The notes under the pieces were generated by a model. It made no database searches, was not told the origin of the DNA, and saw only the letters and a program-made list of their open reading frames with translations. Position numbers and translations under genes: made by a program. DNA of 64,000 bases from Candidatus Daviesbacteria bacterium. Lineage in GTDB: Bacteria; Patescibacteriota; Microgenomatia; Daviesbacterales; UBA10151. Positions within the stretch are counted from its first letter, which is position 1. Each line of letters starts with the position of its first letter. The stretch lies in contig JACPDA010000004.1 of NCBI GenBank assembly GCA_016184225.1, positions 409,671 to 473,670 on the forward strand, given 5' to 3'. This document shows, piece after piece, positions 936 to 50,931 of the stretch.

Positions 936-941
936 TATCCG

Positions 942-3958: not shown

Positions 3959-4721
3959 AAACGTGAATAAAATTTCCGTAGTATTAGCCACATATAACGA
4001 AGAGGACACTTTAGAAAATTGTCTGGAATCAGTAGAGAAGCTGGCAGGTGAGATTGTAATAGTTGACGGTGGATCAACGGACAAAACTTTAGACATTGCC
4101 AGAAAGTTTAAAGCTAAAATTATTCAGACAGATAATCCGCCGATTTTTCATATAAATAAAAACAAGGCAATAGATGCCGCCACGAAGGAATGGATTTTAC
4201 AACTGGATGCTGATGAGGTGGTAACGAAAGATCTTGTAAAGGAAATAAAAAATGTAATTTCATTAGCATCGGATATTAATGGATATTGGATTCCCAGGAA
4301 GAATTTTTTCTTAGGTAAATTCTTAACAAAAGGCGGTCAGTATCCTGATTATACTTTAAGGTTATACCGACGAGGCAAAGGGAGACTGCCTGCAGAAGAT
4401 GTCCATGAGCAGGCAGTAGTGGAAGGTAAGATTAGTTTCTTAAAGTGCGACCTCTTACACTTACGAGATAAGAATTTCTCTAAGTATCTGGAAAGATTTA
4501 ACAGGTATACTGACTTACTGGCTTTACAAATAAAGGTCAGTAGCAACAGGAAGAATATTTTTTCTTCTCTGAATTTCATTTTCATTAAACCAACTATTTG
4601 GTTTTTAAAAGCTTACTTTCGACATAGAGGATATGTTGACGGTTTTCCGGGTTTCATCTTTGCGCTGTTTTCCTCGCTCAGATTTCCCATCTCGTACATA
4701 AAATTTATGATTAACGAATAA
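3948..4721 (+). CDS. GT2 glycosyltransferase (DPM1/GtrB-like polyprenol-phosphate sugar synthase type).
   Basis: ISVVLATYNEE...IVIVDGGSTDKT...LQLDADEV motifs (GT2 DxD). C-terminal hydrophobic tail. The listed start is a GTG at 3948. An alternative GTG at 3963 would avoid overlapping the upstream stop. Confidence 0.75.
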   Translation: MQIKNVNKISVVLATYNEEDTLENCLESVEKLAGEIVIVDGGSTDKTLDIARKFKAKIIQTDNPPIFHINKNKAIDAATKEWILQLDADEVVTKDLVKEIKNVISLASDINGYWIPRKNFFLGKFLTKGGQYPDYTLRLYRRGKGRLPAEDVHEQAVVEGKISFLKCDLLHLRDKNFSKYLERFNRYTDLLALQIKVSSNRKNIFSSLNFIFIKPTIWFLKAYFRHRGYVDGFPGFIFALFSSLRFPISYIKFMINE

Positions 4722-4724
4722 AAT

Positions 4725-5801
4725 ATGAAAGTTGCAATTAATACCCTGCCATTGAAAAGTGCACATAAGTATAGAGGGATAGGATATTACACTGTTAACC
4801 TGCTTGAATCTTTAAAACAGGAGACTTCTATGGACGTCTCTGAGTTTACCAAGCTGACTGATGTAAAAGATGTCGATATAATTCATTATCCTTGGTTTGA
4901 TCTATTTTTTCATACCTTACCAATAAGAAGGTATTTTCCAACAATTGTTACCATCCATGATCTAATCCCTCTCGTTTTTCCTAATCATTACCCGGTAGGA
5001 TTGAAAGGTAAGTTGAACTTCATACTTCAAAAAATAGCATTAAGTAGTTGTAAATATATTATCACCGATTCCAACACATCCAAACAAGATATAGTCAAAT
5101 TTCTAAAAATCAAAAACGAAAGGATTTCAGTAATATCTTTAGCGGCAGATCCGAAATTTAGGGTTTTAAACAATGATACAAAATTACTTCATATTAAAAG
5201 GCAATATCATCTGCCTGAACGTTTTTTGCTTTATGTTGGGGATGCCAACCGGGTTAAGAATCTCCCTTTCCTGATAGAAGGATACAGAGAGCTTTTGAAG
5301 ATTCCGGGTTATTTGGATCTTAAGTTGGTTTTAGTAGGCGGAGTATTTTTAAAACATGTAGAAAATATAGATCATCCGGAGCTTGAAAGCTTAAAGTTAG
5401 TTAATAAATTAATTAAACAATATGGTCTGGATGAAAACATAATTAGACCAGGACAGATTGAAGATGGTGAATTAGTAGCTTTTTATAATTTGGCAACCCT
5501 GTATGTTCAGCCCTCCATCTATGAGGGTTTTGGACTGCCAATTCTGCAGGCATTTGCCTCCGGAACACCGGTTATAGCATCTAATAAAGGGAGCTTGCCG
5601 GAAATTGGGGGACAAGCGGCTGTGTATTTTGATCCAGTTGACATTAGGCAATTTACAATTATAGCCAAAGAATTATTAGAGGATCCTTCATTGTTAAACA
5701 AGTTATCAAAGCTCGGTTTAAAGCGCTCTACTCAATTTTCCTGGAAGAGGGTGGCACGGGAAACAGAGTCAATTTACCTTAAAGCACTTAAGAATGAATA
5801 G
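4725..5801 (+). CDS. GT4 (GT-B fold) glycosyltransferase.
   Basis: C-terminal EGFGLPILQAFASGTPVIASNKGSLPEIGG, the EX7E-type motif of GT1/GT4 enzymes. Confidence 0.75.
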   Translation: MKVAINTLPLKSAHKYRGIGYYTVNLLESLKQETSMDVSEFTKLTDVKDVDIIHYPWFDLFFHTLPIRRYFPTIVTIHDLIPLVFPNHYPVGLKGKLNFILQKIALSSCKYIITDSNTSKQDIVKFLKIKNERISVISLAADPKFRVLNNDTKLLHIKRQYHLPERFLLYVGDANRVKNLPFLIEGYRELLKIPGYLDLKLVLVGGVFLKHVENIDHPELESLKLVNKLIKQYGLDENIIRPGQIEDGELVAFYNLATLYVQPSIYEGFGLPILQAFASGTPVIASNKGSLPEIGGQAAVYFDPVDIRQFTIIAKELLEDPSLLNKLSKLGLKRSTQFSWKRVARETESIYLKALKNE

Positions 5802-6957
5802 TCACATAAATCTTAATTCACCCGTTTTTAAAATCTTGTTGATTTTTCTTACATGGAGATTTTTACTGATACTAATTTTGCTTTTTGCGATCAATTTTGT
5901 TCCTTTGGGGAGTACAGATCGTTTTTTGGGTGGAGGTCCAGTTAACTATTCCATTTCACCGGAGCTTTTTGCTTGGGCAAACTTTGATGGGGAACATTAT
6001 TTATCGATTGCTATATTCGGATATAAAAATCTAGAGCAGGCTTTTTTCCCGGTTTATCCTGCTTTGATAGCATTTTTCGCTAGACCTGATTCTTATAATT
6101 TACTAACTTCTTTGGTTAATTCTACAATTTTAGGTCTTCTTATTTCGAATGTATCTTTCGTACTAGCCTTGATCTTTCTTTGGGAATTGATAAAAATTGA
6201 TTTTTCAAACAAAATTGCATATTGGGTAATAATACTGCTACTTATCTTTCCGACGTCTTTTTATTTTGGATCGGTCTATAACGAATCAGTGTTTCTGCTT
6301 TTGTCCGTGTTGTCATTCTATAATGCCAGAAAAGGCAAGTGGTTTGCAGCAGGATTGCTGGGAGCGGTTGCATCTGCAACCAGGGTTTTCGGCATTTTTC
6401 TTTTACCGGCACTGCTGATAGAAGCCTGGCAACAGAAGGCACCTTATTCCAGATTAATGTGGATTTTCCTAATTCCTTTTGGGCTGGGAGCTTATATGTG
6501 GTATCTGAATACGACCGTAGGCGATGCTCTTGCTTTCTATCACTTTCAGGGATTAGTCGGCGAGCAGCACCAGCCAGGTATAACATTATTGCCACAAGTA
6601 TACTTTCGTTATATAAAAATGTTTGCAACAACCAGTATGCAGAATCCGATCTTTCAAACATTAATACTGGAGTTTACCATAGGTTTACTTTTTTTCTTCC
6701 TTCCGATTTACGGATACTTTAAGAAAATTAGATTATCATATGTCCTATACGCCATGGTGGGATTCCTGGTGCCGGCGATACAGGGTAGCTTTTCATCGTC
6801 CCCGCGTTATGTGATAATTTTATTTCCTGCGTTTTTAGCCGCCGCTTTATTAGTTAATAGTTTGCCAAAAATAGTTAAAACTCTGATAATACTTTTGTCT
6901 TTTTCTGTTTTTCTGATAGAAGCAGCTCTATTTTTAAGGGGGTACTGGGTAGCATGA
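5794..6957 (+). CDS. Polytopic membrane protein, possibly a DUF2029/PIG-V-like GT-C mannosyltransferase.
   Basis: About 10 hydrophobic helices. ANFDGEHYLSIAIFGYKN...FFPVYPALIAF resembles the first-loop region of GT87/PIG-V-like membrane glycosyltransferases. The assignment is tentative. Confidence 0.4.
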   Translation: MNSHINLNSPVFKILLIFLTWRFLLILILLFAINFVPLGSTDRFLGGGPVNYSISPELFAWANFDGEHYLSIAIFGYKNLEQAFFPVYPALIAFFARPDSYNLLTSLVNSTILGLLISNVSFVLALIFLWELIKIDFSNKIAYWVIILLLIFPTSFYFGSVYNESVFLLLSVLSFYNARKGKWFAAGLLGAVASATRVFGIFLLPALLIEAWQQKAPYSRLMWIFLIPFGLGAYMWYLNTTVGDALAFYHFQGLVGEQHQPGITLLPQVYFRYIKMFATTSMQNPIFQTLILEFTIGLLFFFLPIYGYFKKIRLSYVLYAMVGFLVPAIQGSFSSSPRYVIILFPAFLAAALLVNSLPKIVKTLIILLSFSVFLIEAALFLRGYWVA

Positions 6958-8267
6958 AAAAAAGAGTATACGAATTAATCAAACACCCATTGTTTTCAGG
7001 CAGCATGGTTATGATAATCGGTTCCAATGTCATTAGTTTTTTAAATTATTTATACCATCTCATAATGGTTAGATTATTAGCTCCACCCAGCTATGGAGAA
7101 TTGGTAGCACTGTTTTCTCTAATTGGGTTTTTGGGGATATTGTCCTCTTCTTTAAATTTGGTAGTAACTAAATTTGTTTCAGCGGCAAAAAATAACTTGG
7201 AAATAAGTAGTATTGTAAGCTGGCTTAATTCTAAAATCTTCATCTTTTCTTTAGCAGTTTTTCTATTAATTACTTTTTTATCCCCCATTATTTCTTCTTT
7301 TTTAAAAATAGAAAATAATTTATTAATTATTTTAATTGCCTTGCCTTCTCTTTTAGGATTGGCATCTCTGCTTTACAAATCGGTTCTTCAGGGGCTCTTA
7401 AGGTTTCAGCAGATGATTTTAAGTGTCTTTGTCGAAAACGGATTAAAGCTGATATTAGGGGTTATCCTGGTATATGCAGGATTTTCAGTAGGCGGGGCTG
7501 TAGCGGGTTTAGTGATTGCCTCATTTATAGGCTTTTTTCTGTCAAGATTTTTTATCCGCAATTTCCTGAAAGCATCAGAGGAAAAACCTAACATTAAATC
7601 AATGTTTTTGTACTCTTTTCCTGTAACAGTTCAATACCTATCGATAACGTCTCTTTTCTCTTCCGATATACTTCTAATTAAACATTTTTTCTCTCCTCAT
7701 GATGCCGGCATCTACGCAATAATTTCAACACTGGGAAAGATTATTCTTTTCGGAACAGGGCCTATTGGAGCGGTAATGTTCCCGCTTGTATCCCAGAGAC
7801 AGGCAAGGGGTGATAATTATAAGCGCATTTTTTTCTTGAGCTTCATTTTGACTTTTACCTTGGCCGTTTTGATTCTTCTAATTTATTGGTTCATTCCGGA
7901 GCAGGTGATTAATCTTCTTAATCCTTCATATCTGGAAGCGGCACCTCTTTTAGTTTGGTACGGAATCTTTATAACATTTTTTACCCTTAGTTCGCTCTTT
8001 ATAAGTTATTATCTTTCTTTAAATAGAGTATCTGTTGTTATTTTACCGTTTATTGCGGCGGTAGCGCAAATTATCGGGATATGGTTTTTTCATCGTAGTT
8101 TATTCGAAGTAATTCTGGTTTCTTCTATAGTGGCTGGCATGCTGCTTGTACTTTTGTTAATATATTCAGCATATGGAAGCAAACTTGGTGTCGGTGATAG
8201 TGCCGGCATACAAACAAGAAAAAACAATAGCCAGAGATTTAAGGAGGATGAAGGAAGTTTTAGATAA
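6954..8267 (+). CDS. Wzx-like oligosaccharide flippase (MOP/polysaccharide biosynthesis protein family).
   Basis: 12-14 TM helices. The N-terminal region (SGSMVMIIGSNVISFLNYLYHLIMVRLLAPPSYGELVALFSLIGFL) is typical of Wzx/RfbX flippases. Confidence 0.65.
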   Translation: MKKRVYELIKHPLFSGSMVMIIGSNVISFLNYLYHLIMVRLLAPPSYGELVALFSLIGFLGILSSSLNLVVTKFVSAAKNNLEISSIVSWLNSKIFIFSLAVFLLITFLSPIISSFLKIENNLLIILIALPSLLGLASLLYKSVLQGLLRFQQMILSVFVENGLKLILGVILVYAGFSVGGAVAGLVIASFIGFFLSRFFIRNFLKASEEKPNIKSMFLYSFPVTVQYLSITSLFSSDILLIKHFFSPHDAGIYAIISTLGKIILFGTGPIGAVMFPLVSQRQARGDNYKRIFFLSFILTFTLAVLILLIYWFIPEQVINLLNPSYLEAAPLLVWYGIFITFFTLSSLFISYYLSLNRVSVVILPFIAAVAQIIGIWFFHRSLFEVILVSSIVAGMLLVLLLIYSAYGSKLGVGDSAGIQTRKNNSQRFKEDEGSFR

Positions 8268-8979
8268 ACTTCGTTATCCTACAGAGTTAATTTGTGTAGT
8301 TGACGGTAATGTTGATGCTACCTTCAGAAAAGCTTCCGTGTTTGCTAATAAGAACCCAAATGTAAGAGTAATTGGATATGATCATAATAAAGGTAAAGGA
8401 TATGCCATCAGATTCGGTATGGCAGCAAGTAAGGGAGATATTGTCGGGTTTATTGACGCGGGTATGGATTTGAATCCAAACGGACTATTTATGCTGCTGG
8501 AGCACTTTGAATGGTATAACGCAGATATAATAGTAGGATCTAAAAGGCATCCCGTATCTAAGGTGCATTATCCTTGGCAAAGGAAAGTGCTTTCCATGGG
8601 TTACCAGCTTTTGGTTTTGACCCTCTTTGGTTTAAAAGTACGTGATACCCAAGTCGGTATGAAATTTTTCAAAAGGGAGGTTTTAGAAAAGGTATTACCC
8701 AGACTTTTGGTAAAGGCTTTTGCTTTTGATGTAGAAATATTAGCTGTAGCAAATTACCTGAAATATAATAGAATTTATGAAGCGCCTGTAGAGATTAAGT
8801 TAAGATTTGGCGGGACATCAACAGTGACAAGCCAGAAATTTATCAGGACAGTTTTAGCAATGCTTACAGATACATTAGCAATATTCTATAGATTAAAAAT
8901 ATTAAATTATTATTCCGATAAAAATCACAGAAGATGGAAATTTGATCCGGAACTAAATTTTAGGGTAAACGTCGGATGA
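8173..8979 (+). CDS. GT2 glycosyltransferase, DPM1/GtrB-like.
   Basis: VSVIVPAYKQE...ICVVDGNVD...FIDAGMD plus C-terminal FAFDVEILAVA (GtrB/DPM1-like). The ORF overlaps the 3' end of the flippase gene by 95 nt. Confidence 0.7.
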   Translation: MEANLVSVIVPAYKQEKTIARDLRRMKEVLDKLRYPTELICVVDGNVDATFRKASVFANKNPNVRVIGYDHNKGKGYAIRFGMAASKGDIVGFIDAGMDLNPNGLFMLLEHFEWYNADIIVGSKRHPVSKVHYPWQRKVLSMGYQLLVLTLFGLKVRDTQVGMKFFKREVLEKVLPRLLVKAFAFDVEILAVANYLKYNRIYEAPVEIKLRFGGTSTVTSQKFIRTVLAMLTDTLAIFYRLKILNYYSDKNHRRWKFDPELNFRVNVG

Positions 8980-10103
8980 ATATATTAATTTTTTCCTGGA
9001 GAGGGCCCGGTCATCCAAATGCCGGGGGGGCAGAAATTTCTACCCATGAACATGCAAAAGGATGGGTTAAAGCAGGCCATCAGGTTACCTTATTTACCTC
9101 TTATTACCATGGGGCAAAAAGGGAAGAAAAAATAGACGGAGTAACCATCATAAGGGAAGGACGTCAATTTATAGAAGTTCAACTAAAAGCTTTTAAGTGG
9201 TTTTTATTTGCAAAGCACCCTGAATTTGATCTGGTTGTTGATGAATTCCATGGAATTCCCTTTTTTACGCCGCTCTATGTAAGAGATAAGAAACTTGCCT
9301 TTATTCACGAGGTAACCGGGGAGGTATGGGGATTAAATCCCTGGAGCCGCCCTTTTAACCTGATACCTAAAGTATTAGGTCCTATCTTTGAACCGCTAAT
9401 TTTTAAACTGTTTTATAAAAAGATTCCGTTTATGACGGTTTCAGAATCTACCAAAAAAGACCTGATTAATTTCGGGATACCTGGAAAATGCATCACCGTT
9501 ATCAATAACGGATTCGATAAGTATAATACAGAAAATAATTTGTCTAAAGAAAAGAAAAAAACAGTTATTTTTCTGGGAGCCTTAGCAAAAGATAAGGGTA
9601 TAGAAGAAGCCTTAAAAACTTTTTCTATTTTAAGCCGATCAGGAGGTAACTTTCAGTTTTGGATAGTTGGTAAATCTGATCCGAAATATTTACAATTTTT
9701 GAAAAGACAAAGTCATAGATTAAACATAAATACAAAAGTAAGGTTTTGGGGGTTTGTCTCGCAAAAGGAAAAGTTCAGACTCCTCAAAAGATCCCATGTT
9801 CTAATTCATCCTGCTATTCGGGAGGGGTGGGGGCTGGTAGTGATAGAAGCGGCAAGTGTAGGAACCCCGACTGTGGCATTTAATGTACCCGGTCTTCGCG
9901 ATTCCGTCATTCATGATAAAACCGGAATCATTTGTAAAGATCAATCCCCGGAGTCATTAGCGAAAGCGATAATTAACCTTTTGCAAGGCAGTGTAAAATA
10001 TAAGGAGATGAGTCGAAGTGCGATTTCCTGGAGCAAAAACTTCTCTTGGGAAAAAGCTACGAAATCAAGTTTGAAATTAATTGAAGAAGTGGTAAACTAC
10101 TGA
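8976..10103 (+). CDS. GT4 (GT-B) glycosyltransferase.
   Basis: N-terminal GGAEIST..WVKAGHQVTLFT and C-terminal REGWGLVVIEAASVGTPTVAFNVPGLRD (EX7E). ATGA overlap with the upstream gene. Confidence 0.75.
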   Translation: MNILIFSWRGPGHPNAGGAEISTHEHAKGWVKAGHQVTLFTSYYHGAKREEKIDGVTIIREGRQFIEVQLKAFKWFLFAKHPEFDLVVDEFHGIPFFTPLYVRDKKLAFIHEVTGEVWGLNPWSRPFNLIPKVLGPIFEPLIFKLFYKKIPFMTVSESTKKDLINFGIPGKCITVINNGFDKYNTENNLSKEKKKTVIFLGALAKDKGIEEALKTFSILSRSGGNFQFWIVGKSDPKYLQFLKRQSHRLNINTKVRFWGFVSQKEKFRLLKRSHVLIHPAIREGWGLVVIEAASVGTPTVAFNVPGLRDSVIHDKTGIICKDQSPESLAKAIINLLQGSVKYKEMSRSAISWSKNFSWEKATKSSLKLIEEVVNY

Positions 10104-10105
10104 TA

Positions 10106-11083
10106 ATGAAAAAAACGAAAAAGGTTGTCATTACCGGAGCGGGCGGGTTTGTTGGTCACCATTTGGTTTCTTTTTTGAAAAAGAAGGGTTACTGGGTGCG
10201 CGGAGTTGACATAAAACATCCTGAATATAAATCTACCGATGCAGATGAATTTTTGAAATTGGATTTAAGGGAGAAAAAAAATGCTTTAAAAGCAACAGAG
10301 GGAATGGATCATGTTTACGCCTTGGCAGCTGATATGGGCGGAATGGGTTTTATTTCCAAAAATCATGCAACTATTCTTTATAATAATGCAACTATTAACC
10401 TCAACACCATTGAGGCGGCAAGAATCAATAAAGTCGGTAGGTATTTTTATTCATCTTCAGCATGTATTTATCCGGAATACCGCCAGATCAAATCAAAACT
10501 GAAACCTTTGAAGGAAGAAGATGCTTTTCCGGCACAACCACAAGATGCTTACGGTTGGGAAAAATTAGTAACTGAAATTCTGGCCAAATACTATCATGAG
10601 GAGCATGGTTTAGAGACACGTATTGCCCGTTTCCATAATATCTTTGGCCCATATGGAACATGGGATGGAGGTAGGGAAAAAGCGCCTGCAGCGATCTGCA
10701 GAAAAGTTGCCATAGCAAAGCTAACAGGCAAAAAGGAGATAGAAATTTGGGGAGACGGAAAGCAAACAAGATCTTTTTGTTATATTGATGATTGTTTAAA
10801 CGGCATCTATAAATTGATGATGTCTGACTTTAGAGAGCCACTTAATATCGGTCAGGATAGAATGGTAACAATAGATCAATTAGTAGATATAGTCTCAAAG
10901 ACTGCAGGTGTAAACTTTAAGAAAAAGCATATTCCCGGACCTCAAGGGGTCAGGGGGAGAAATTCAGATAACACAAAGCTTCGCGAGACCCTGAAATGGG
11001 AACCTGAAATTTCTTTGGAAGAGGGGCTTGCAAGAACCTATCAGTGGATAGAAGAGCAGGTAAAAACTAAAAACAAAAATTAA
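10106..11083 (+). CDS. GDP-mannose 3,5-epimerase (GME)-like NAD-dependent epimerase.
   Basis: Extended SDR with the GAGGFVGHH Rossmann motif. Long colinear similarity to plant GME: SSSACIYPE, AQPQDAYGWEKLVTE, RIARFHNIFGPYGTWDGGREKAPAA, GDGKQTRSFCYIDDC, SDFREPLNIG and HIPGPQGVRGRNSDN all match GME signature blocks as I recall them. Confidence 0.75.
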   Translation: MKKTKKVVITGAGGFVGHHLVSFLKKKGYWVRGVDIKHPEYKSTDADEFLKLDLREKKNALKATEGMDHVYALAADMGGMGFISKNHATILYNNATINLNTIEAARINKVGRYFYSSSACIYPEYRQIKSKLKPLKEEDAFPAQPQDAYGWEKLVTEILAKYYHEEHGLETRIARFHNIFGPYGTWDGGREKAPAAICRKVAIAKLTGKKEIEIWGDGKQTRSFCYIDDCLNGIYKLMMSDFREPLNIGQDRMVTIDQLVDIVSKTAGVNFKKKHIPGPQGVRGRNSDNTKLRETLKWEPEISLEEGLARTYQWIEEQVKTKNKN

Positions 11084-13404
11084 TGCTTCTGTTTTTATTT
11101 TATCTTATTCCTATTTTACTCTCAGGAATAATTCTCCTTCGAAAGATCAGTACGATAAATAGATTTGAATTATTAATTCCGGCAGGAAGTATTTTGGGTT
11201 TTGCAATATTTACCTTTTCTTTAAACCTTGTCTCGTTTTTACTAAAAGGACCGATTGGGATCATAACTGCTTACCTTTTAGTAATTAGCCTAGGATTTAC
11301 GGCATTTAAGTCTGTCAGATCAGAAACTTGGCATGTTGATTTCCCCAGAGGCAAACAGTTAACCTTTTGGCTCCTCAGTATTTTAGTTTGGGGGCTTTTT
11401 ATATATTGGAAGTCAGCCTATGCGCTTATAGGAAGCGATACCAATCTTTATTACGGCATTGCCCATTCTTTTATAAAAGGGAATTTTCCCTTTCTAACAC
11501 CCTGGCAGCCGGATATTCCGTTAGCATACCATGCTGGAGCGCCGGAACTGCTGGGCGCATTTTATTATTTTTCTAATTTAGATTTTCAGTTTTTGCATTT
11601 ATTCTTTTCGGGTCTTTTTATTTTCTTTGCTGCGCAGATAATTATTTGGATCATTCAAAGGCATGAGACGGTAGCTAGTTTCTTATTGGCCAACCTTGCG
11701 GCTACAGTAACTTTCGTTAGCTTTGGTTTTATTTATATAACTTGGCCTGTTTTTCCAATACAATTATCTGAGTTAGGAAGCGTTAATCAGTTAGTTTTAT
11801 GGCTGAGGAATCTTCCGACTGTAGCTTCCGCAATTGAAGTATATGGTGCGCCTATTAATCTGGATGCTTTAATTTATTTTATCTTCCATGCTTATGGGCT
11901 GGTAATCTTTTTGTCTTTGTTGGTATTACTGTTGTACAACAGAAAAGATAAACCCTTAATGGGATGGGTTTTGATTTGTACTGGTTTAGCTTCCTTAGCA
12001 TTGGTTAATGAATCTATGTTTATGGCAGCTTTTCCTGCTTTAGTTGGGGGAATATTTTTAACCGAACTGAGAGAAAAAAGGGTGTTAAAAAGTTTAAGAG
12101 TTTTAACCCTGCTTTTAGTATTGACTATTCTTGTGGTCTTTTTCCAGGGAGGCATTATCTCTGCTTCGCTAAGCAATCCCCGAGGCATACAAAGATCTAC
12201 CGTAATATTCCCCAAAAAGGAAGATGTTAAAGAAGATTTTAGAAGCTATCATTTAGGTCAGATATCATCCAAGTTATTGCCTGATAAACTAGAGTGGTTG
12301 CCCTTAAGATGGTTTCATCCGGGAGCTTATTTTTTACTGGTATTTTCTGTGGTGGCAATTATTATAGCCAGAAGTAAGCCTTATTCAGTCTTGCTAAAAG
12401 CTTTATTTATAGCAGGTATTTTTTCCTTAATAGCATATAATGCTATAGTCCCCAAATTTTTAGTTGCCAACGGAAACAGGTTTTTATCTACCTCGTTTTT
12501 ATTTTTTTCTTTGATTTTGTGTATATCATTAATTCCGCTTTTTGAAAAAATTAAAAGTTTAGTTAAGAAGATACTATTTTTCTTGCTTTTAGGGTGGGTT
12601 TTTATCCCCACGATTTTGCCGCCTCTGGCACTTCTTACAAAACAAAGGTTTGGCGAGAATAAATTAATTCCTAAATACCAACAAAGTAGTGACGGGATAT
12701 CATGGCTTAAAAGGAATGTAAATTTAAGTGAAAGGGTACTAGTGTTGGATAAAAACTCTCCCCATCCCAGCGGCCAAGAGAGGGCTTTAGTAGAAGCAGG
12801 AGCATTTGCGCCCCTATTTTCCGGAAATTTCAGAGCTTTTACAATTGAAGCTTCTCCCGAATATGTTGATATTGCTTATAGCTTAAGTCCAAATAGTCTG
12901 AAAAAACTGAAAGTAAATATCCTGCTGGTGGATAATATCTTTTTTGAATCCTTGCCCGAAAGGAGAAAGCAGCAACTGCAAGATGAAACATATTTCGAAA
13001 AGGTTTTCGATAATTCAAAACCTAGCAATTGGGAAAAAATTTACAGAATTAAAGATAAATATCTAGAAAGTGGCGGTGAGTTGGATGGCACCCTTGAGCA
13101 ATTATTACGAGTTTTACCCACTCGAGGAAAAATATATATTGATAATGAGAAAAATTTCAACCCTTCCTTTTTAAGGAGGCCGCTTATTTTCAGTTTAAGA
13201 GATAGAGATATCTATTACTTACCTCAGTCAGGCGTTTATCTGAATGTCGAGGCGAATATAAATTCTCACCCTCCAAGAAAGGAAAGAGATTATGATTATT
13301 TAATTTTAGGGAAAAATACAAATCCGGAAGAAGAATGCAACTGCCAAACTAAACTTTTATGGCAGGGAATTAGGAATGAGATTTATGTTTGGAGAAAGAT
13401 TTAA
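11083..13404 (+). CDS. Large polytopic membrane protein (773 aa) with a C-terminal soluble domain. Function unknown, possibly a glycan-processing membrane enzyme.
   Basis: About 14 hydrophobic segments in the first 520 aa followed by a hydrophilic C-terminal domain of about 250 aa. No recognisable catalytic motif. Confidence 0.45.
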   Translation: MLLFLFYLIPILLSGIILLRKISTINRFELLIPAGSILGFAIFTFSLNLVSFLLKGPIGIITAYLLVISLGFTAFKSVRSETWHVDFPRGKQLTFWLLSILVWGLFIYWKSAYALIGSDTNLYYGIAHSFIKGNFPFLTPWQPDIPLAYHAGAPELLGAFYYFSNLDFQFLHLFFSGLFIFFAAQIIIWIIQRHETVASFLLANLAATVTFVSFGFIYITWPVFPIQLSELGSVNQLVLWLRNLPTVASAIEVYGAPINLDALIYFIFHAYGLVIFLSLLVLLLYNRKDKPLMGWVLICTGLASLALVNESMFMAAFPALVGGIFLTELREKRVLKSLRVLTLLLVLTILVVFFQGGIISASLSNPRGIQRSTVIFPKKEDVKEDFRSYHLGQISSKLLPDKLEWLPLRWFHPGAYFLLVFSVVAIIIARSKPYSVLLKALFIAGIFSLIAYNAIVPKFLVANGNRFLSTSFLFFSLILCISLIPLFEKIKSLVKKILFFLLLGWVFIPTILPPLALLTKQRFGENKLIPKYQQSSDGISWLKRNVNLSERVLVLDKNSPHPSGQERALVEAGAFAPLFSGNFRAFTIEASPEYVDIAYSLSPNSLKKLKVNILLVDNIFFESLPERRKQQLQDETYFEKVFDNSKPSNWEKIYRIKDKYLESGGELDGTLEQLLRVLPTRGKIYIDNEKNFNPSFLRRPLIFSLRDRDIYYLPQSGVYLNVEANINSHPPRKERDYDYLILGKNTNPEEECNCQTKLLWQGIRNEIYVWRKI

Positions 13405-14131
13405 GGCTTAAGGTATGGAATTTCGGTAAGTCACTAAAGTATACTTTTGTTACCGCCTTTAGAACATTAAACCCGTCCTGGAGGGCTCTTATACCCGATG
13501 CTCCACCCACTCTTTTTGTATAAGTAATAGGGATTTGTACAAGATTCATATCCATCTTGACAGCCTTTACAACAGTCTCGGCTTCATATTCAAAATGCCT
13601 TTCCCTTAAGTCCAAAGTCAAAAATGCCTCTTTCCTGAATCCCTTAAAGCCGGCCATTACATCAGTGATTTTTCTGCCGCAAGCAAGCGATGTGGCGAAA
13701 GACATTGCCCAGTTACCAAACAGGTTGCGAAAACTAACAGAACCTTTCTCTATTTTTCCTTCTCCTTGGAATCTGGTCCCGATTACCACATCCGCCCCTT
13801 TATCTAAGGCGTCAACAAAAAGAGGTATCTCATGCGGTTGAAATTGATGGTCAGTATCAATTTGAATGATATAATCACCTGTGGCTAGGAGTCCTCCCGC
13901 CCAAAAATCCGCTCCTTTACCCCGCTTGAAGGGAAACCGGATTATCTTGTCCACGCGCATTTTCTTGGCTATTTCTATAGTTTTATCTTTTGATGCGGCA
14001 TCAACAACGATAATCTCTATGGGAAAAAATTTCCTTAACTTCTGGCAATCCTTAATTGTTCTGCCAATATTTTTTTCCTCATTGTAAGAGGTAAGAATAA
14101 TACTGACTAACTTTTTGCTTTTCTTGTTCAT
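13370..14131 (-). CDS. GT2 glycosyltransferase, DPM1-like polyprenol-phosphate mannosyl/glucosyltransferase.
   Basis: LVSIILTSYNEEKNI...IIVVDAASKDKT...IQIDTDHQ...ITDVMAGFKGF motifs typical of Dpm1/PpmC-like GT2. Confidence 0.75.
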   Translation of the reverse strand: MNKKSKKLVSIILTSYNEEKNIGRTIKDCQKLRKFFPIEIIVVDAASKDKTIEIAKKMRVDKIIRFPFKRGKGADFWAGGLLATGDYIIQIDTDHQFQPHEIPLFVDALDKGADVVIGTRFQGEGKIEKGSVSFRNLFGNWAMSFATSLACGRKITDVMAGFKGFRKEAFLTLDLRERHFEYEAETVVKAVKMDMNLVQIPITYTKRVGGASGIRALQDGFNVLKAVTKVYFSDLPKFHTLSLKSFSKHKSHS

Positions 14132-14216
14132 CCGGAGGCCAGAATATCCTAATAAAAAATAAATGTCAACCTTGAATTAATAATCCAAGTGTAGTAGGAT
14201 CCAATAATAGAAAAAT
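14132..14216. promoter_or_regulatory. Divergent intergenic region with a sigma70-like element TTGAAT-17nt-TAGGAT upstream of the dehydrogenase gene.
   Basis: ttgaattaataatccaagtgtagtaggat precedes the ATG at 14217 by about 20 nt. AT-rich. This is the only non-coding gap between two divergent operons. Confidence 0.3.
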
Positions 14217-15554
14217 ATGGATAGCAGTAAGATTGCGATTTTTGGGGTAGGGAGAGTAGGACTACCTTTAGCGTTGGTGTTAGCGGATAAAGGTTTTCGG
14301 GTAACCGGAATAGACGTAGATCCTTATAGAGTTAATCTCCTGAAACATAAGATCATGCCATTTTTAGAAGAAGATGCAGAGCCTCTTTTGGATAAACACA
14401 GCGGTAAGAATTTCCAGGTTTTTTCTCAAGAACATATTGACAGAATAGTTTCAGAGAATGCTATTATTATTTTTACTTTGGGTACTCCGATAGACGATAC
14501 TTATAGTCCCAATTTTTCGGATATAGAAAAATTAATTAGGAGGATCTCGCCGGTTATTAAGTCCGGACATACGATAATATTACGGAGTACGGTTTCTCCC
14601 GGGGCCACAGAACAATTGGCCAGGCAACTGGAGGAACAAACAAAGCTGGTACTGGGTGAAAGCTTATTTTTAGCCTACTGTCCTGAGAGAATAGCAGAAG
14701 GTAAATCCGTTGCAGAATTGGTTCAAATCCCGCAAATAATAGGTACTTTAGAGGCAGGTAGCGCGAAAAAAGCAGCGGAGGTATTTGAGAAAATTGCCCC
14801 ATCGGTTTTATTTACTAATCCCAGATCGGCAGAACTGGCAAAACTATTTTGCAATATGTACAGGTATATTGATTTTGCAATCGGGAATGAATTTATGATG
14901 ATCGCTGAAAGCTACGGTGCGGATATTTATGAAGTTTTGAATCTGGTTAATAAAGACTATAAAAGGGGTAACTTAAAATCACCGGGATTTACTGCCGGGC
15001 CTTGTTTAGTGAAAGACGGATTTTTTCTGATTGATAAAAGCCCGTATATGGAATTGGTAACTGCGGCATGGAGACTGAATGAAAATATCCCGGGTTATCT
15101 TTTGTCACGAGTAAAAGCAGAAATTAAAAATTTGCATAAGAAAAATGTCGCCATTTTAGGATTGGCTTTCAAAAAAAACATAGATGATACACGTTATTCC
15201 CTTTCCCCAAAACTGCAAAGATATTTTTTGGCAGAAGGAGCTAAAGTTTCTGTCCATGACCCTTTAATCGACTCGGAGCCGCTTGAAGATGCCATAAAGG
15301 GAGCCGAAATTTTAATTGTAGGTATAAACCATGATGCATTCAGCAAAATCAGTCTGGAATATCTTGGTAATTCGGTATCGCCTGATTGCCTGATTGTAGA
15401 TATCTGGAATATGTTTGGAACCGGTAAAATTGTTTTTTATCTTAAAGATGTTTTGGCAGTTAAGGAGAAACTTAAAGCAAGAGGCAACGGAGAATTAAAA
15501 GTACTCGGCAAAAAGAGCCCGCCTCAGCGAAAGTTATCTTTCCCCCAAGCATGA
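14217..15554 (+). CDS. Nucleotide-sugar dehydrogenase (UDP-glucose/GDP-mannose dehydrogenase family).
   Basis: IAIFGVGRVGLPLALVLADKGFRVTGIDVD Rossmann N-terminus, a central catalytic region containing GPCL, and a C-terminal UDP-binding domain. Confidence 0.75.
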   Translation: MDSSKIAIFGVGRVGLPLALVLADKGFRVTGIDVDPYRVNLLKHKIMPFLEEDAEPLLDKHSGKNFQVFSQEHIDRIVSENAIIIFTLGTPIDDTYSPNFSDIEKLIRRISPVIKSGHTIILRSTVSPGATEQLARQLEEQTKLVLGESLFLAYCPERIAEGKSVAELVQIPQIIGTLEAGSAKKAAEVFEKIAPSVLFTNPRSAELAKLFCNMYRYIDFAIGNEFMMIAESYGADIYEVLNLVNKDYKRGNLKSPGFTAGPCLVKDGFFLIDKSPYMELVTAAWRLNENIPGYLLSRVKAEIKNLHKKNVAILGLAFKKNIDDTRYSLSPKLQRYFLAEGAKVSVHDPLIDSEPLEDAIKGAEILIVGINHDAFSKISLEYLGNSVSPDCLIVDIWNMFGTGKIVFYLKDVLAVKEKLKARGNGELKVLGKKSPPQRKLSFPQA

Positions 15555-16507
15555 AAAAAATTAAAGTATTAGTTACCGGCGGTGCCGGTTTCATTGGTAG
15601 TGAGGTTGTTAAACAGCTCCTGGAGAAAGGTTACAGCGTCAGGGTGGCGGATGACTTGTCTAAATTAGAAGCAAAGGTTCCCAGATCCTGCGAATTTCTA
15701 AAGGTGGATTTGACCGACAGAAAAGCAGCTCTTAGTGCCATGGAAGATATTGATTTTTGTATTCATTTGGCAGCTAAAATCGGGGGGATCGGGTACTTTC
15801 ATAAATATCCTGCTACCATACTTTCGGAAAATAATAAGATGTATTCTGCTGTTTTTGAGGCAGCAGTTTCGAAGAAAATAAAAAGGATCATCTATCTTTC
15901 TTCCTCTATGGTTTTTGAATCGACAAACTACTTTCCAAGCAAAGAAAAGGATCTTGTAATTATTCCACCTCCTGTAAGTGCTTATGGTTTCTCTAAACTG
16001 GTAGGCGAGTGGTACTGTCATGCTTTTAAGGATGAGTATGGTTTGAACTATACAATTATCAGGCCCTTTAATGCTTATGGAATAAATGAAGCACCCGGTG
16101 AAGAAGTGGGGTATGCGCATGTGATACCTGATTTAATCAAGAAGATTATTTCCGGACAATACCCGCTGGAACTTTTGGGTAATGGCAGGCAAACAAGATG
16201 TTTTACCCACGTTTCAGATATCGCTAACGGTATTATTCTAGCTATGGAGTCCGCAAAGGCGAAAAATGAAGATTTTAATATCGGATCTGAAAAGGAAATA
16301 AGAATGAGAGATTTGGCAAAGCTGCTTTGGAAAAAATGCTCAATAGATCATCCTTTTAAGGTAAAATATGTAACCGGGTTTAAATATGACATCAAAAGGC
16401 GGGTACCCTCTTCTAAGAAGGCTGCAAAAATTTTAGGTTGGAAACCCAAGAAGGATTTAAGCAAAGAATTGCCCGTGATTGTTGAATGGGTGAGGAATAT
16501 ATTGTAA
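15551..16507 (+). CDS. NAD-dependent nucleotide-sugar epimerase/dehydratase (extended SDR).
   Basis: KVLVTGGAGFIGSEVV glycine motif, SAYGFSK (YxxxK) catalytic motif, ATGA overlap with the dehydrogenase gene. Confidence 0.7.
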   Translation: MKKIKVLVTGGAGFIGSEVVKQLLEKGYSVRVADDLSKLEAKVPRSCEFLKVDLTDRKAALSAMEDIDFCIHLAAKIGGIGYFHKYPATILSENNKMYSAVFEAAVSKKIKRIIYLSSSMVFESTNYFPSKEKDLVIIPPPVSAYGFSKLVGEWYCHAFKDEYGLNYTIIRPFNAYGINEAPGEEVGYAHVIPDLIKKIISGQYPLELLGNGRQTRCFTHVSDIANGIILAMESAKAKNEDFNIGSEKEIRMRDLAKLLWKKCSIDHPFKVKYVTGFKYDIKRRVPSSKKAAKILGWKPKKDLSKELPVIVEWVRNIL

Positions 16508-16522
16508 GATAGATAATTAATC

Positions 16523-17023
16523 ATGAAACTTCTTTCTAAAATAGCAACACTACTTTTATTGCTGGCAACGTTTTTTTTGGCAGGAACAGAATTAATTTAC
16601 GCTCAAAATACTCAAGATTTAAAACTGCCAAATACTATTATCAATCCCGGCTCGTTTTATTATCCTTTTAAACGGCTGATAGAGAAGGGAAGAGAAAGAG
16701 TAATTTTTTCAGCAGAAGGAAAGATTTCTTTTGCTGCCTCTTTGCTGAAAACACGGCTTTCAGAATTGGATTATGTAACTGAGAAAAAAGTATTGTCAGA
16801 GATACAAGGCAGCAGTGAAAGGTTTGCTTATCAGGCGGGAATCTTAACGGAAGAACTTATACAAAGCAAGTCGGAAAAGAAGAAGGCTATTGTTAAGGAA
16901 TTTGAAAAGTATAGTAAGTTTTTGGAACCCTTAAGAGATAGATATCCGGCAAATTCCAGTTTTTGGATGCTGGTCCAACATGATATTAATACTTTAAGTA
17001 TATTAGGTGAGCGTCTTAGGTAG
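16523..17023 (+). CDS. Hypothetical secreted protein.
   Basis: N-terminal signal-peptide-like hydrophobic segment (LLLLATFFLAGTELIYAQN) followed by a hydrophilic charged region. No recognisable domain. Confidence 0.4.
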   Translation: MKLLSKIATLLLLLATFFLAGTELIYAQNTQDLKLPNTIINPGSFYYPFKRLIEKGRERVIFSAEGKISFAASLLKTRLSELDYVTEKKVLSEIQGSSERFAYQAGILTEELIQSKSEKKKAIVKEFEKYSKFLEPLRDRYPANSSFWMLVQHDINTLSILGERLR

Positions 17024-17026
17024 AAT

Positions 17027-18274
17027 ATGTCAGCCAGTCAAAAGGAAGTTTTTCAGCTAGAGGTTTGCAGGGCGTGTGACAGCGATAATCTTTTATTATT
17101 TCTTCAGTTAGGACCAACACCTGTACCTAATGGTTTTTTAAAGGCTCACCACCGCCATCGTGCAGAAAAATTTTATCCTTTGGATGTTTGTTTTTGTAAA
17201 GACTGCGGATTAGTCCAGCTGGCTCATGTTGTATCTCCAAAAGTTATGTTTAAAAATTATGTGTATATTCCTTCAACATCTGAAACTATGAGAACACACT
17301 TTGCTGATTTAGCAAAACAAGCTGTTAAGAAAACAGGTGCAAAAGAAGGGGATTTAGTTTTAGATATCGGCAGTAACGACGGAACCCTTCTTAAGTCGTT
17401 TAGCTCGTTTAAGATGAAAATACTGGGTGTTGATCCTGCAGAAAATCTTGCCAAGAAGGCAAATCAGGAGGGAGTAAAAACAGTATGCGGTTTATTTACT
17501 CTTGATCTGGCTAAGAAAATCAGAAAAGATGAGGGAGAAGCCAGGATTATTACCGGTACTAATGTGGTAGCCCACGTACATGACTTGAATGATTTCCTTG
17601 AGGGTATCAAAGTATTACTTTCAGATGAAGGGTTATTTATCTGCGAATTCCCATACTTAATCGATCTGATTGAGAAGATTGAATTTGATACTATTTATCA
17701 GGAACATCTGTCATATTTTTCAATTACTCCCCTTGAGAAACTCCTGAAAAAACACAAGTTATTCTTGCTGGATGTTCAAAGAATTCCGGTTCATGGGGGT
17801 TCTGTCCGGGTATTTGTTGGCAGAAAGCCCTTAAAGTCAAGCAAACAGGTTAAAAAATTATTGCAACTCGAGAGAAAGAAAGGGATATTAAAGCCCGAGA
17901 CATATCTCAAGTTCAGAAGAAAGGTTGATAAAGTAAGACATGAATTGGTTCAACTTCTCTGGAGTTTGCGGCTGAAAAAGAAACAGATAGTCGGGTATGG
18001 CGCATCTGCAAAAGGAAATATTATTTTAAATTATTGCAGGATTGGGCCAGAAACACTGGATTGTATTGTCGACTCCATTCCTTATAAACAAGGTAAATTT
18101 ACTCCGGGAATGCATATTCCGATTTTTCCCGAAGAGAAGTTATTAAAAGATCAACCTGATTATACTTTGCTTTTGGCTTGGAATTTTGCGGATGAGATAA
18201 TAAAGAAACAATCAGAATACCGTAAACGGGGAGGTAAATTTATACTTGCCCTGCCTAAGCTGACAATTGTGTAG
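17027..18274 (+). CDS. NDP-hexose C-methyltransferase (TylCIII-like): N-terminal zinc-ribbon, class I SAM methyltransferase core, C-terminal C-methyltransferase domain.
   Basis: CxxC...CxxC (CRACDSD...CFCKDCG), LVLDIGSNDGTLL SAM-binding motif, FDTIYQEHLSYFS. Paralogous to the gene at 47753..49033. Confidence 0.65.
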   Translation: MSASQKEVFQLEVCRACDSDNLLLFLQLGPTPVPNGFLKAHHRHRAEKFYPLDVCFCKDCGLVQLAHVVSPKVMFKNYVYIPSTSETMRTHFADLAKQAVKKTGAKEGDLVLDIGSNDGTLLKSFSSFKMKILGVDPAENLAKKANQEGVKTVCGLFTLDLAKKIRKDEGEARIITGTNVVAHVHDLNDFLEGIKVLLSDEGLFICEFPYLIDLIEKIEFDTIYQEHLSYFSITPLEKLLKKHKLFLLDVQRIPVHGGSVRVFVGRKPLKSSKQVKKLLQLERKKGILKPETYLKFRRKVDKVRHELVQLLWSLRLKKKQIVGYGASAKGNIILNYCRIGPETLDCIVDSIPYKQGKFTPGMHIPIFPEEKLLKDQPDYTLLLAWNFADEIIKKQSEYRKRGGKFILALPKLTIV

Positions 18275-28303: not shown

Positions 28304-28983
28304 GCTATTAATTCCTGGTAAAACAACTTTAACTGGTCCAGGCCTGTTTTAAGTGAGGGAAATGTGCTTTTCCCATAGACCCTTTTTCCTTCTTTAGTCG
28401 GGAATTCCGTTATTTTAACACCGGTCTTTAATGCCCTGATTATCTGTTGATAGTCTGATGCATTCGGGGGCGGGATTTTTATCCTTAATTTTTCATAAGC
28501 CTTCCGTGCGAAAGCGCGGTAACCCTGCGTAGGATCTGTGCATTTGTTGCCTCCTCTTCCCCATACAATAGTTGCGATAAGTCCCATTCCCTGACAAAAC
28601 CACTTACGCGGCTTCAAGAGCTGGTCATCCTCTTCATTATATCCATCTTTTCCCATTCTTCCGGCAATGATGAATTCAAACCCCTCTTTAAGCAGCTTAA
28701 CAAATTTTTTAAGATCATAAGGTTCCATATTTCCGTCCGGGTGAAAAAATATTAAGGTATCTTCTTTTGTGTTTCTCCAGGCAGATTCGTATGCTCCGCC
28801 CACCCCTTTATATTTTTGCGGGAAGACCTCTATACCTTTACTTTTCCAAAATTCCTGAGTTCCGTCTGAAGAATTTGCATCAATGACATATATCTTATCC
28901 ACTAAATTTTTAGGGATCCTGCCGAATATTTTTTCCGAATTTCTCCGCTCGTTCTTGGTAAAGATTATCAGTGCAATTTTCAT
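28300..28983 (-). CDS. GT2 glycosyltransferase (DPM1-like, short form).
   Basis: MKIALIIFTKNE...VIDANSSDGT...FFHPDGN GT2 motifs. ATGA overlap with the RGP-like gene. Confidence 0.75.
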   Translation of the reverse strand: MKIALIIFTKNERRNSEKIFGRIPKNLVDKIYVIDANSSDGTQEFWKSKGIEVFPQKYKGVGGAYESAWRNTKEDTLIFFHPDGNMEPYDLKKFVKLLKEGFEFIIAGRMGKDGYNEEDDQLLKPRKWFCQGMGLIATIVWGRGGNKCTDPTQGYRAFARKAYEKLRIKIPPPNASDYQQIIRALKTGVKITEFPTKEGKRVYGKSTFPSLKTGLDQLKLFYQELIA

Positions 28984-50853: not shown

Positions 50854-50931
50854 ATTTAAACACTTCAATTCTAGTTGCAATCCTTAGTAGAAGTCAATGT
50901 CTGTGAAGTGATACAATTTGTTAACGAATTG

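Follow-up and report, generated by a model that had tools for sequence, protein, structure and literature searches.

L-hexoses are rare and valued as targets of biocatalysis, and GDP-mannose 3,5-epimerase (GME, GM35E) is among the few enzymes that give direct access to them. To our knowledge a single bacterial GM35E has been characterised so far, and the combination of a GME with an MtdL-type mutase of family GT75 is known to us from two actinomycete antibiotic pathways only. In the A201A pathway of Marinactinospora thermotolerans GM35E activity occurs together with MtdL; the hygromycin A pathway has Hyg20. MfGM35E of Methylacidiphilum fumariolicum was the first bacterial GM35E to be characterised [Gevaert et al. 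2019, PMC6678494]; this biochemically validated enzyme shares 50.5% identity with the Arabidopsis protein (AtGME) [PMC6678494]. As given in the text of the GM35E review [PMC8787198], GM35E is distinguished by a Cys145/Lys217 pair, in which Lys replaces the His of GMER and which is absent in GalE, while the residue that acidifies the Cys is Arg306 in GME and Lys in GMER.

The DNA analysed here is a 64-kb stretch, referred to below as the window, from Candidatus Daviesbacteria, an ultra-small bacterium of the CPR. We estimate a probability of about 0.8 that the gene at 10106–11083 (forward strand) encodes a GME making GDP-L-galactose for a cell-surface glycan, activity and substrate being predicted from the sequence. 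The protein lies within the known GM35E family, of which a bacterial member had already been described.

Identity of the epimerase

The ORF runs from ATG to TAA and specifies 325 amino acids. When compared by phmmer with all PDB sequences its top match was AtGME [2c59, E=6.9e-117, 394 bits] over query residues 5–321, in agreement with the original prediction that nearly the whole protein resembles GME. The next classes, UDP-glucose 4-epimerase and GDP-fucose synthase, followed at about 1e-27 to 5e-27 (~98 bits), and enzymes of the GalE, Fcl, UXS and RmlB types reached at most 98 bits. As a measure of the superfamily background, a generic SDR of the same window (15551–16507) scores ~99 bits to GME. 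Pairwise alignment with AtGME gave 56% identity over 311 aligned residues, which exceeds the 50.5% of MfGM35E, and PF01370 [E=3.5e-44] spans the full length of the protein.

The NAD+ motif GxxGxxG is present as G11/G14/G17 (in TGAGGFVGHH), and the SDR triad S118, Y149 and K153 corresponds to Arabidopsis S143, Y174 and K178. The acid/base pair consists of C120 (in SSACIYPE) and K192 (in GGREKAPAA), equivalent to C145 and K217, while R285, R222 and N178 occupy the positions of the Cys-acidifying R306, the diphosphate-binding R243 and the conserved N203. All eight published diagnostic residues, that is, those named in the text of the GM35E review [PMC8787198], are retained, and these eight together with the glycine motif are invariant across 12 diverse homologues. 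Public annotation goes no further than the generic name "NAD-dependent epimerase/dehydratase" for this protein, and it lists the mutase described below as a "hypothetical protein."

A genome scan confirmed at least 583 relatives among the 600 pattern matches listed. The best 80 of these, with 66–82% identity to the 325-residue protein, span the Acidobacteriota, Chloroflexota, Gemmatimonadota, Proteobacteria, NC10, Planctomycetota and Omnitrophota, and also include other CPR and one archaeon. Among the same best 80 the recurrent neighbours of GME are Wzz/BY-kinase, Wza, Wzx, GT2, GT4, Bac_transf and WecG, that is, genes of polysaccharide synthesis. With a bacterial GM35E characterised [PMC6678494] and homologues in many bacterial phyla, the label "plant-type" originally given to the gene is misleading.

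Operon structure and neighbouring genes

Upstream of GME and on its strand lie two PMT_2/PMT membrane glycosyltransferases (GT39/GT83-like, GT-C; 942–3958) bearing PF13231 and PF02366 matches and 7–8 hydrophobic segments. They are followed by a GT2, a GT4 and a PIG-V-like membrane protein of the mannosyltransferase family (3948–6957, from Pfam), and by a Wzx-type flippase [Polysacc_synt, PF01943/PF13440] at 6954–8267; the former are syntenic, and the latter is found at an equal position, in two other Daviesbacteria loci (L005 and L007), where the GME operon as a whole is also syntenic. The GT2 of a conserved module (8173–8979, from Pfam) has orthologues of 73–81% identity in L005, L007 and L012, and a GT4 [8976–10103, Pfam Glycos_transf_1/Glyco_transf_4] stands immediately upstream of GME. 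The GT39-like, GT2, GT4 and Wzx genes which had been named as neighbours are thus all present.

These upstream genes either overlap by 1–11 nt or are separated by gaps of 2–3 nt, the exception being a 95-nt overlap at the GT2 (8173–8979) that probably reflects a mis-set start. A scan of positions 1–15000 for promoter and terminator consensus sequences gave counts at the level of shuffled sequence (45 vs 45.8; 16 vs 12.8), so the operon structure is read from gene spacing. Of the proposed co-transcription, therefore, the tight same-strand packing is borne out, while transcription as a single unit is suggested by the spacing. There is no compositional island around GME, the GC content being 0.33–0.38 across the window.

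Orthologues of the GT4 at 8976–10103 (55–59% identity) occur directly upstream of GME in L005, L007, L010 and L012, whose other GT4s are only 20–27% identical to it. Comparison with solved structures gave no donor sugar for this enzyme, the matches being generic for GT4 (GlgA, MshA-like, WaaG). We might suggest that it is a candidate user of the GME product.

Downstream, a 773-residue polytopic glycosyltransferase of GT-C fold (11083–13404, forward strand) overlaps the end of GME in the sequence TAATG. It belongs to a CPR-restricted family and possesses an N-terminal polytopic GT-C membrane domain and an extracytoplasmic C-terminal domain; we regard it as translationally coupled to GME and lineage-specific. 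Convergent on the end of the operon is a GT2 [Pfam] resembling polyprenyl-phosphate-hexose synthases of the AglJ or Dol-P-hexose transferase type (13370–14131, reverse strand). Its best NCBIfam matches do not reach the cut-off (AglJ, with 119.6 bits, and Dol-P-hexose transferase), and orthologues of 81% identity are found at an equal position in L007 and L012.

The 64-kb window holds no ManA, ManB or ManC, no GDP-mannose 4,6-dehydratase and no GDP-fucose genes, and its sole nucleotidyltransferase resembles glucose-1-phosphate cytidylyltransferase. Among the GME loci of the best 80 of at least 583 relatives, six have any nucleotidyltransferase nearby, and three of these six match Man-1-P guanylyltransferase best, below threshold. 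Since supply genes are so rarely linked to GME (6/80) their absence from the window is uninformative. CPR genomes are metabolically reduced, however, and the supply of GDP-mannose on which GME would depend is putative, a point that counts against the proposed function.

Alternative assignments

No NCBIfam model matched the 325-residue protein above its cut-off and none bearing the GM35E name was returned. The best model is that of a GDP-L-fucose synthase, and Pfam and NCBI describe the protein only as an "NAD-dependent epimerase/dehydratase," from which one might suppose it to be a GMER/Fcl or a mislabelled generic UDP-hexose 4-epimerase. The Fcl match is, however, misleading: it scores 130.8 bits where the model, NF047922, demands 500. 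Furthermore, the catalytic base is Lys rather than His, the Cys-acidifying residue is Arg rather than Lys, GalE is without the Cys/Lys pair, the PDB score of 394 bits to GME stands against 98 to Fcl or GalE, and the dehydratase which would feed an Fcl is lacking in the window. The best matches are GMEs and not generic 4-epimerases, as the original prediction had it, and every GME-specific residue checked is in place. By these residue and score tests both assignments are effectively refuted, and we consider them very improbable. Fainter still is the prospect that the gene serves an ascorbate pathway of the Smirnoff-Wheeler type, in which GME is the committed epimerase in plants. GDP-L-galactose phosphorylase, L-Gal-1-P phosphatase and L-galactose dehydrogenase were not found in the window, and this absence of downstream genes led us to reject the pathway; moreover, both here and in most other genomes GME is found among glycosyltransferases and a flippase.

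A more serious alternative is a GME-family enzyme with a different substrate or product, acting either on GDP-D-glycero-D-manno-heptose or as a 5-epimerase for GDP-L-gulose, as proposed for BlmG of the bleomycin pathway. A 60%-identical orthologue in L094 directly follows genes for an HddA-like kinase, a GmhB-like phosphatase, an HddC-like nucleotidyltransferase, a transaldolase and a SIS protein, a hint that GDP-heptose may be the substrate of some members of the family; the window contains no heptose-pathway genes. BlmG, which is 42% identical to AtGME, has been linked to L-gulose, and GM35E itself releases L-Gul and D-Alt side products. Against this, the sugar-facing catalytic residues are all identical to those of the GDP-mannose enzyme, and the 56% identity to AtGME is higher than that of either MfGM35E or BlmG. 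We judge a different substrate or product to be unlikely, and in what follows the gene is treated as a GME forming GDP-L-galactose.

The GT75 mutase

The original prediction had placed an RGP-like mutase with GME in one island and had taken the two to point to an unusual sugar composition, possibly with L-Gal and Araf. A gene of this family does exist at 27155–28303 [PF03214, E=2e-20], but it lies on the reverse strand 16 kb from GME and so is not co-transcribed with it. Nor does the product appear to be a plant-like enzyme. Its best PDB match is MtdL [7xpr/7yua, E=1.6e-97], over the full length and with 41% identity, against merely E=3.4e-06 for the plant mutase UAM [8cid]. Eighteen of the 20 functional residues of MtdL are identical; the two that differ are N42, replaced by a Lys which is invariant in the clade of this protein, and S228, replaced by Thr (conservative). 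The Mn2+ ligands (D109–D111 and H287 in MtdL) are D114–D116 and H292, with the DDD motif kept, and the sugar/phosphate-binding and catalytic residues of MtdL, R159, D195, Q229, R257, D260, R289 and H292, are all identical. The guanine-selectivity set of MtdL (Thr13, Ser86, Asp40, Ile15) appears as T13, S91, D44 and I15, whereas the UDP-using plant RGPs have Pro/Asp where this protein has Thr/Ser. The two E-values and the Thr/Ser residues set the protein apart from the plant UDP-L-arabinopyranose mutases. Judging from these residues the protein most likely turns GDP-L-galactopyranose into GDP-L-galactofuranose; the arabinofuranose proposal is not supported, and GME and the mutase most likely belong to one pathway to L-Galf instead of providing L-Gal plus Araf.

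A GT2 [28300–28983, reverse strand, Pfam Glycos_transf_2] directly upstream overlaps the mutase gene. The order GT2-then-GT75 is kept, at 70–90% identity, in L097 and L098, and conservation of the adjoining GT2 does not extend beyond close CPR relatives. It is a candidate furanosyltransferase.

MtdL-like genes were found near a GME orthologue in three of the four loci looked up. The same holds for four of the 15 metagenome loci that extend at least 9 kb to either side; in L124 and L132, among these 15, the two genes are directly adjacent. Both modules also occur within 10 kb of each other in L098, a related CPR contig. MtdL-like loci without GME often hold an Fcl-like GDP-L-fucose synthase. 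The linkage to GME or Fcl lends indirect support to the activity predicted for the mutase. Seen from the GME side, no GT75 occurred within 10 kb in any of 92 GME-centred loci, which implies that GME usually functions with no such partner, and the linkage is visible from the mutase side only. Where a GT4 stands beside the GME/mutase pair, in L124 and L099, it is not orthologous to any GT4 in the window.

Proposed pathway

Homology to the enzymes of Arabidopsis and Methylacidiphilum suggests that the Daviesbacteria GME is self-sufficient, with tightly bound NAD+. Tyr149, Lys153 and Ser118 would oxidise C4 of GDP-alpha-D-mannose, Cys120, acidified by Arg285, would act with Lys192 to remove and return protons at C5 and C3, after which the 4-keto group would be reduced again. 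The expected equilibrium mixture would be mostly GDP-mannose, with GDP-beta-L-galactose and some GDP-L-gulose. This unfavourable equilibrium may be pulled forward by glycosyltransferases, the best candidate being the GT4 at 8976–10103. The lipid-linked product would presumably be flipped by the Wzx of the operon and elaborated outside the membrane by GT-C enzymes, including the 773-residue protein coupled to GME. The Mn2+-dependent MtdL-type mutase probably turns some of the GDP-L-galactopyranose into GDP-L-galactofuranose, which a second set of transferases would use. The sugar predicted for the glycan is L-galactose, partly as L-galactofuranose, and not arabinofuranose.

CPR surface glycans probably mediate attachment to the host, and the corrected assignment predicts a testable sugar (L-Gal, partly L-Galf) in the poorly understood CPR envelope. 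That MtdL-like mutases are recurrently linked to GME or Fcl suggests that L-furanoside synthesis is much commoner than the two antibiotic cases imply. At somewhat less than even odds, we might propose that the Daviesbacteria envelope bears L-galactofuranose made via GME and an MtdL-type GT75, that this route or its Fcl variant (to L-fucofuranose) has gone unrecognised as a widespread source of L-furanosides for surface glycans in uncultured bacteria and archaea, and that the donor of the GT-C enzyme coupled to GME may be an L-sugar linked to polyprenyl phosphate.

Comparison with known systems

Arabidopsis GME [2C59/2C54/2C5A/2C5E] has the same motifs SSACIYPE, GGREKAPAA and GVRGRNSDN as the window protein, together with the triad, the acid/base pair and the equivalents of Arg306, Arg243 and Asn203. 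It differs in its plant extensions of ~25 N-terminal and ~30 C-terminal residues (377 vs 325 aa), in having GxxGxxA for GxxGxxG, and in its ascorbate and cell-wall context, in contrast to the bacterial glycan operon found here. GMER/Fcl is, like GME, an extended SDR with a Cys acid which 3,5-epimerises a GDP-4-keto sugar, but its base is a His, its helper is a Lys, and it depends on an upstream GMD, whereas in the window GME Lys and Arg take these places and no GMD gene lies nearby.

MfGM35E is, like the window GME, of the short bacterial type, encoded beside a glycosyltransferase and with a proposed role in an envelope glycan [PMC6678494]; going by the description in that paper, its conserved residues are those of the window GME. 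Its host is a thermoacidophile of the Verrucomicrobia, while the present gene comes from the CPR, and the window adds the link to a GT75 mutase. That mutase has PF03214, the DXD motif and the catalytic Arg in common with plant RGP/UAM (GT75). As in A201A, the GME and GT75 GDP-sugar pyranose mutase families are present in one genomic region. Unlike the A201A and hygromycin A genes, which belong to actinomycete secondary-metabolite clusters, those described here are 16 kb apart in different operons, within a Wzx- and GT-C-rich envelope glycan region of a CPR bacterium.

Identity of the GME gene

The ORF at 10106–11083 (+) starts with ATG and specifies a 325-aa product for which Pfam offers no more than a generic domain, NAD-dependent epimerase/dehydratase (PF01370, E=3.5e-44). 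No NCBIfam model passes its cut-off, the top one being GDP-L-fucose synthase (131 bits versus a cut-off of 500), and it is for these reasons that the identical NCBI protein bears a generic name. When all PDB sequences were searched the top matches were four Arabidopsis GDP-mannose 3,5-epimerase (GME) entries and a second plant GME (E=6.9e-117 to 1.7e-115, approximately 390 bits, query residues 5–321). The next classes, of the UDP-glucose 4-epimerase (GalE), GDP-fucose synthase and UDP-xylose synthase types, follow at E~5e-27 and ~98 bits, a gap of 90 orders of magnitude in E. As a control, the generic SDR at 15551–16507 matches GME at ~99 bits, that is, at superfamily background. This confirms that the match to the GME family far exceeds chance and, as originally predicted, it covers nearly the whole protein; generic 4-epimerases are not its closest relatives.

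In a review of the family (PMC8787198, Arabidopsis numbering) Ser143, Tyr174 and Lys178 form the triad, and Cys145 and Lys217 the acid-base pair, the whole of which is absent in GalE. Lys217 sets GME apart from GDP-fucose synthase, which has His, while Arg306 acidifies the Cys where fucose synthase has Lys; Arg243 binds the diphosphate, and Asn203 is also named. Pairwise alignment with the Arabidopsis enzyme (AtGME; 56% identity, 311 residues) showed all eight residues to be kept, as S118, Y149 and K153 (triad), C120 and K192 (acid-base pair), and R285, R222 and N178 (AtGME R306, R243 and N203). Nor do they vary across 12 aligned homologues (72–82% identity). The local motifs SSACIYPE, GGREKAPAA and GVRGRNSDN are the same in both proteins, and the window protein carries a canonical NAD motif, G11xxG14xxG17. 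We consider the identification as a GME to be correct and robust, with the enzymatic activity predicted.

Organization of the GME operon

The window forms a very large region for glycan biosynthesis in this Daviesbacteria (CPR) genome. Between 942 and 13404 eleven genes lie on one strand (+), packed by overlaps of 1–11 nt or gaps of 2–3 nt, with, in order, two PMT_2/PMT GT-C genes, GT2, GT4, a PIG-V-like gene, Wzx, GT2, GT4, GME and a gene for a 773-aa membrane protein. The GME stop and the following start overlap (TAATG). Since a promoter and terminator scan of the region remained at chance level, we infer co-transcription from gene spacing only. The sole exception to the packing is the GT2 gene at 8173–8979 (+), whose listed start gives a 95-nt overlap with the Wzx gene. 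The gene call on an identical Logan contig specifies 243 aa in place of 268. The true start is thus likely to lie ~75 nt downstream, the overlap probably being due to a mis-set start. This GT2 is conserved, its orthologues being 73–81% identical.

Two further Daviesbacteria assemblies, in which GME is 82% identical, share this gene order. The GT4 directly upstream of GME has true orthologues (55–59% identity) in four loci, two of which otherwise differ in their surroundings; the other GT4s of these loci are just 20–27% identical to it. Because of this conserved pairing the upstream GT4 is the best candidate for the user of the GME product, though its donor is not readable from sequence. One or more of the GT-C enzymes may use a lipid-linked L-sugar. 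An AglJ/Dol-P-hexose-synthase-like GT2 (13370–14131), convergent on the operon, is also conserved (81% identical). The 773-aa protein has no Pfam or NCBIfam matches. Its family comprises just 92 proteins, none annotated; just four bear a name, in each case "hypothetical protein", and three of these four are from Ca. Daviesbacteria. For at least 24 members of the family the longest contig is of the same length as for a GME homologue, so that the two probably share contigs.

Other glycan genes

Eight further large proteins (511–918 aa, 8–12 hydrophobic segments, no Pfam matches) are encoded at 19917–21737, 21734–23623, 23598–25337 (−), 25358–27145 (−), 29806–31695, 41711–43246 (−), 50875–53631 and 60587–62485. 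At least three of them (starts at 19917, 21734 and 29806) are paralogous. For a single 64-kb region in a small CPR genome, probable GT-C-like enzymes seem markedly expanded.

The stretches 36011–38671, 43260–44408 (−) and 54633–55943 encode a GFO/IDH/MocA oxidoreductase, a hexapeptide acetyltransferase, a DegT aminotransferase, a UDP-GlcNAc 2-epimerase and an NDP-sugar dehydrogenase, a set resembling the WbpA/B/D/E/I route to UDP-2,3-diacetamido-2,3-dideoxy-(mannos/glucos)uronic acid. A NodU/CmcH-type carbamoyltransferase (39911–41620 (+), PF02543 and PF16861) inside the glycan region suggests an O-carbamoylated sugar; in bleomycin, GME-derived L-gulose is joined with carbamoyl-mannose. Two sugar C-methyltransferases (PF08421/PF08484), a glucose-1-phosphate cytidylyltransferase-like gene and an SDR, located at 17027–18274 (+), 47753–49033 (−), 49055–50113 (−) and 50077–50880 (−), suggest a CDP-linked C-branched deoxysugar pathway.

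The mutase gene and its pairing with GME

The ORF at 27155–28303 (−), in a minus-strand operon 16 kb from GME, has a real Pfam match to RGP. In the PDB it matches by far best the entries 7XPR, 7XPS, 7XPT, 7XPU, 7XPV and 8HL8 (E=1.6e-97, full length, 41% identity), whereas a plant UDP-arabinopyranose mutase gives just 3.4e-06. These structures are of MtdL, the GT75 mutase converting GDP-L-galactopyranose (GDP-L-Galp) to GDP-L-galactofuranose (GDP-L-Galf) in the A201A pathway (PMC9937993). The window protein is identical to MtdL at 18 of the 20 residues assigned in that paper to Mn2+, nucleotide and sugar binding, differing at N42 (Lys) and S228 (Thr). Among those kept are Thr13 and Ser86, which govern guanine selectivity in MtdL and for which plant RGPs carry Pro and Asp (PMC9937993). 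The suggestion that this "RGP-like mutase" yields Araf is accordingly not supported. Unlike GME, neither GDP-mannose 4,6-dehydratase nor fucose synthase is encoded in the window and, given an MtdL-like mutase together with GME, the simplest reading is a single putative pathway in which GME would turn GDP-Man into GDP-L-Galp and the mutase would convert GDP-L-Galp to GDP-L-Galf.

No GT75 gene lies within 10 kb of GME in any of 92 GME-centred loci. The linkage is seen only from the mutase side, an understandable asymmetry given that L-Galp is used by many organisms that do not make the furanose. Of four long contigs with MtdL-like genes, three have a same-strand GME orthologue (signature motifs present, 53–60% identity) at a distance of 1–9 kb. 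Among 80 MtdL-like loci from metagenomes, where GME orthologues (at least 349 bits) separate cleanly from other SDRs (at most 129 bits), GME occurs in eight, including 5 of the 18 that have 6 kb or more of flank to either side and 4 of the 15 that have 9 kb or more. At loci L124 and L132 GME ends 25–32 bp upstream of the mutase gene, the order in L124 being GME, mutase, GT4, Wzx. Several MtdL-like loci lacking GME carry an SDR with GDP-L-fucose synthase (Fcl) as clear top match (L136, 7492–8409; L137, 7496–8416; L174, 5739–6656), at ~300 bits and thus under the 500-bit cut-off, which suggests a putative Hyg20-type GDP-L-fucofuranose route in environmental bacteria. With GME or an Fcl-like SDR beside it, the mutase therefore tends to adjoin a GDP-beta-L-hexose producer. 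In L098, a related contig of low GC, orthologues of the window's GT2–mutase pair (70%, 67%) and GME (69%) all fall within 7 kb, and ~2 kb past GME comes a partial orthologue (43%) of its GT4 partner.

The chief reservation on the role of GME within the window is GDP-mannose supply in a metabolically reduced CPR organism. Among all annotated ORFs of at least 100 aa in the 64-kb window none is a GDP-mannose-making gene, and the sole nucleotidyltransferase resembles glucose-1-phosphate cytidylyltransferase. Such linkage is rare (a nucleotidyltransferase lies near GME in 6 of the best 80 of at least 583 relatives), so this absence is weak evidence. Some GME-family members, and some GME/GT75 pairs, may instead act on GDP-heptose. 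At locus L094 (GCA_964401295.1, 14078–20782) a GME orthologue (60% identity) comes directly after genes for an HddA-like kinase, a GmhB-like phosphatase, a nucleotidyltransferase, a transaldolase and an SIS protein, its flanking genes being HddA-, GmhB- and HddC-like, and an MtdL-like mutase is 9 kb distant; the window has no HddA-, GmhB- or HddC-like genes. The route from GDP-Man through GDP-L-Galp to GDP-L-Galf would predict L-galactofuranose in a CPR surface glycan; the term "L-galactofuranose" appeared in the searchable literature only in the MtdL structure paper and one unrelated L-arabinofuranose transporter paper. The re-assigned "RGP", an MtdL-type GDP-L-galactose mutase recurrently paired with GME or Fcl, is the more interesting result.

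Distribution and comparison with known GMEs

A large protein search gave at least 8,000 candidate GME homologues, many at 72–94% identity, and a 50%-identity representative library 1,155 clusters at E<=1e-30. At least 583 relatives were confirmed among 600 pattern matches listed (one genome per species). The best 80 of these (66–82% identity to the window GME) include Acidobacteriota, Chloroflexota, Gemmatimonadota, Proteobacteria, NC10, Verrucomicrobiota, Planctomycetota, Omnitrophota, Saccharibacteria, Paceibacterota and a Methanoregula archaeon. The closest genome-collection relative among the matches listed (L013, CAYQAW010000003.1, 82% identity) is titled "uncultured Gammaproteobacteria bacterium", yet its GME otherwise groups with Daviesbacteria, and the label looks doubtful.

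When every ORF up to 10 kb to either side of GME in the best 80 of the at least 583 loci was clustered, the commonest neighbours proved to be Wzz/BY-kinase (23) and a Wza-type exporter (22), followed by NDP-sugar dehydrogenase (17), GT2 (17), GT4 (15 and 14), Wzx (15), the initiating transferase Bac_transf (14) and WecG (12). The usual prokaryotic role of GME is therefore polysaccharide synthesis. The dehydrogenase association extends to other phyla; in the window (14217–17023 (+)) this gene forms, with a GalE-like SDR and DUF5667, a block which recurs downstream of GME in loci L007 and L012.

The description "plant-type" does not suit a family spanning many bacterial phyla and an archaeon. 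L-Gal and L-Gul may, as proposed, be rare in characterised glycans; the GME gene itself is common. A bacterial enzyme, from Methylacidiphilum fumariolicum, was characterised in 2019 (PMC6678494). Homologues have been linked to the biosynthesis of bleomycin (BlmG) and of A201A. The window GME is a further member of this known, widespread prokaryotic family rather than a plant-like oddity, and at 56% its identity to AtGME exceeds that of the biochemically validated M. fumariolicum enzyme (50.5%; PMC6678494).
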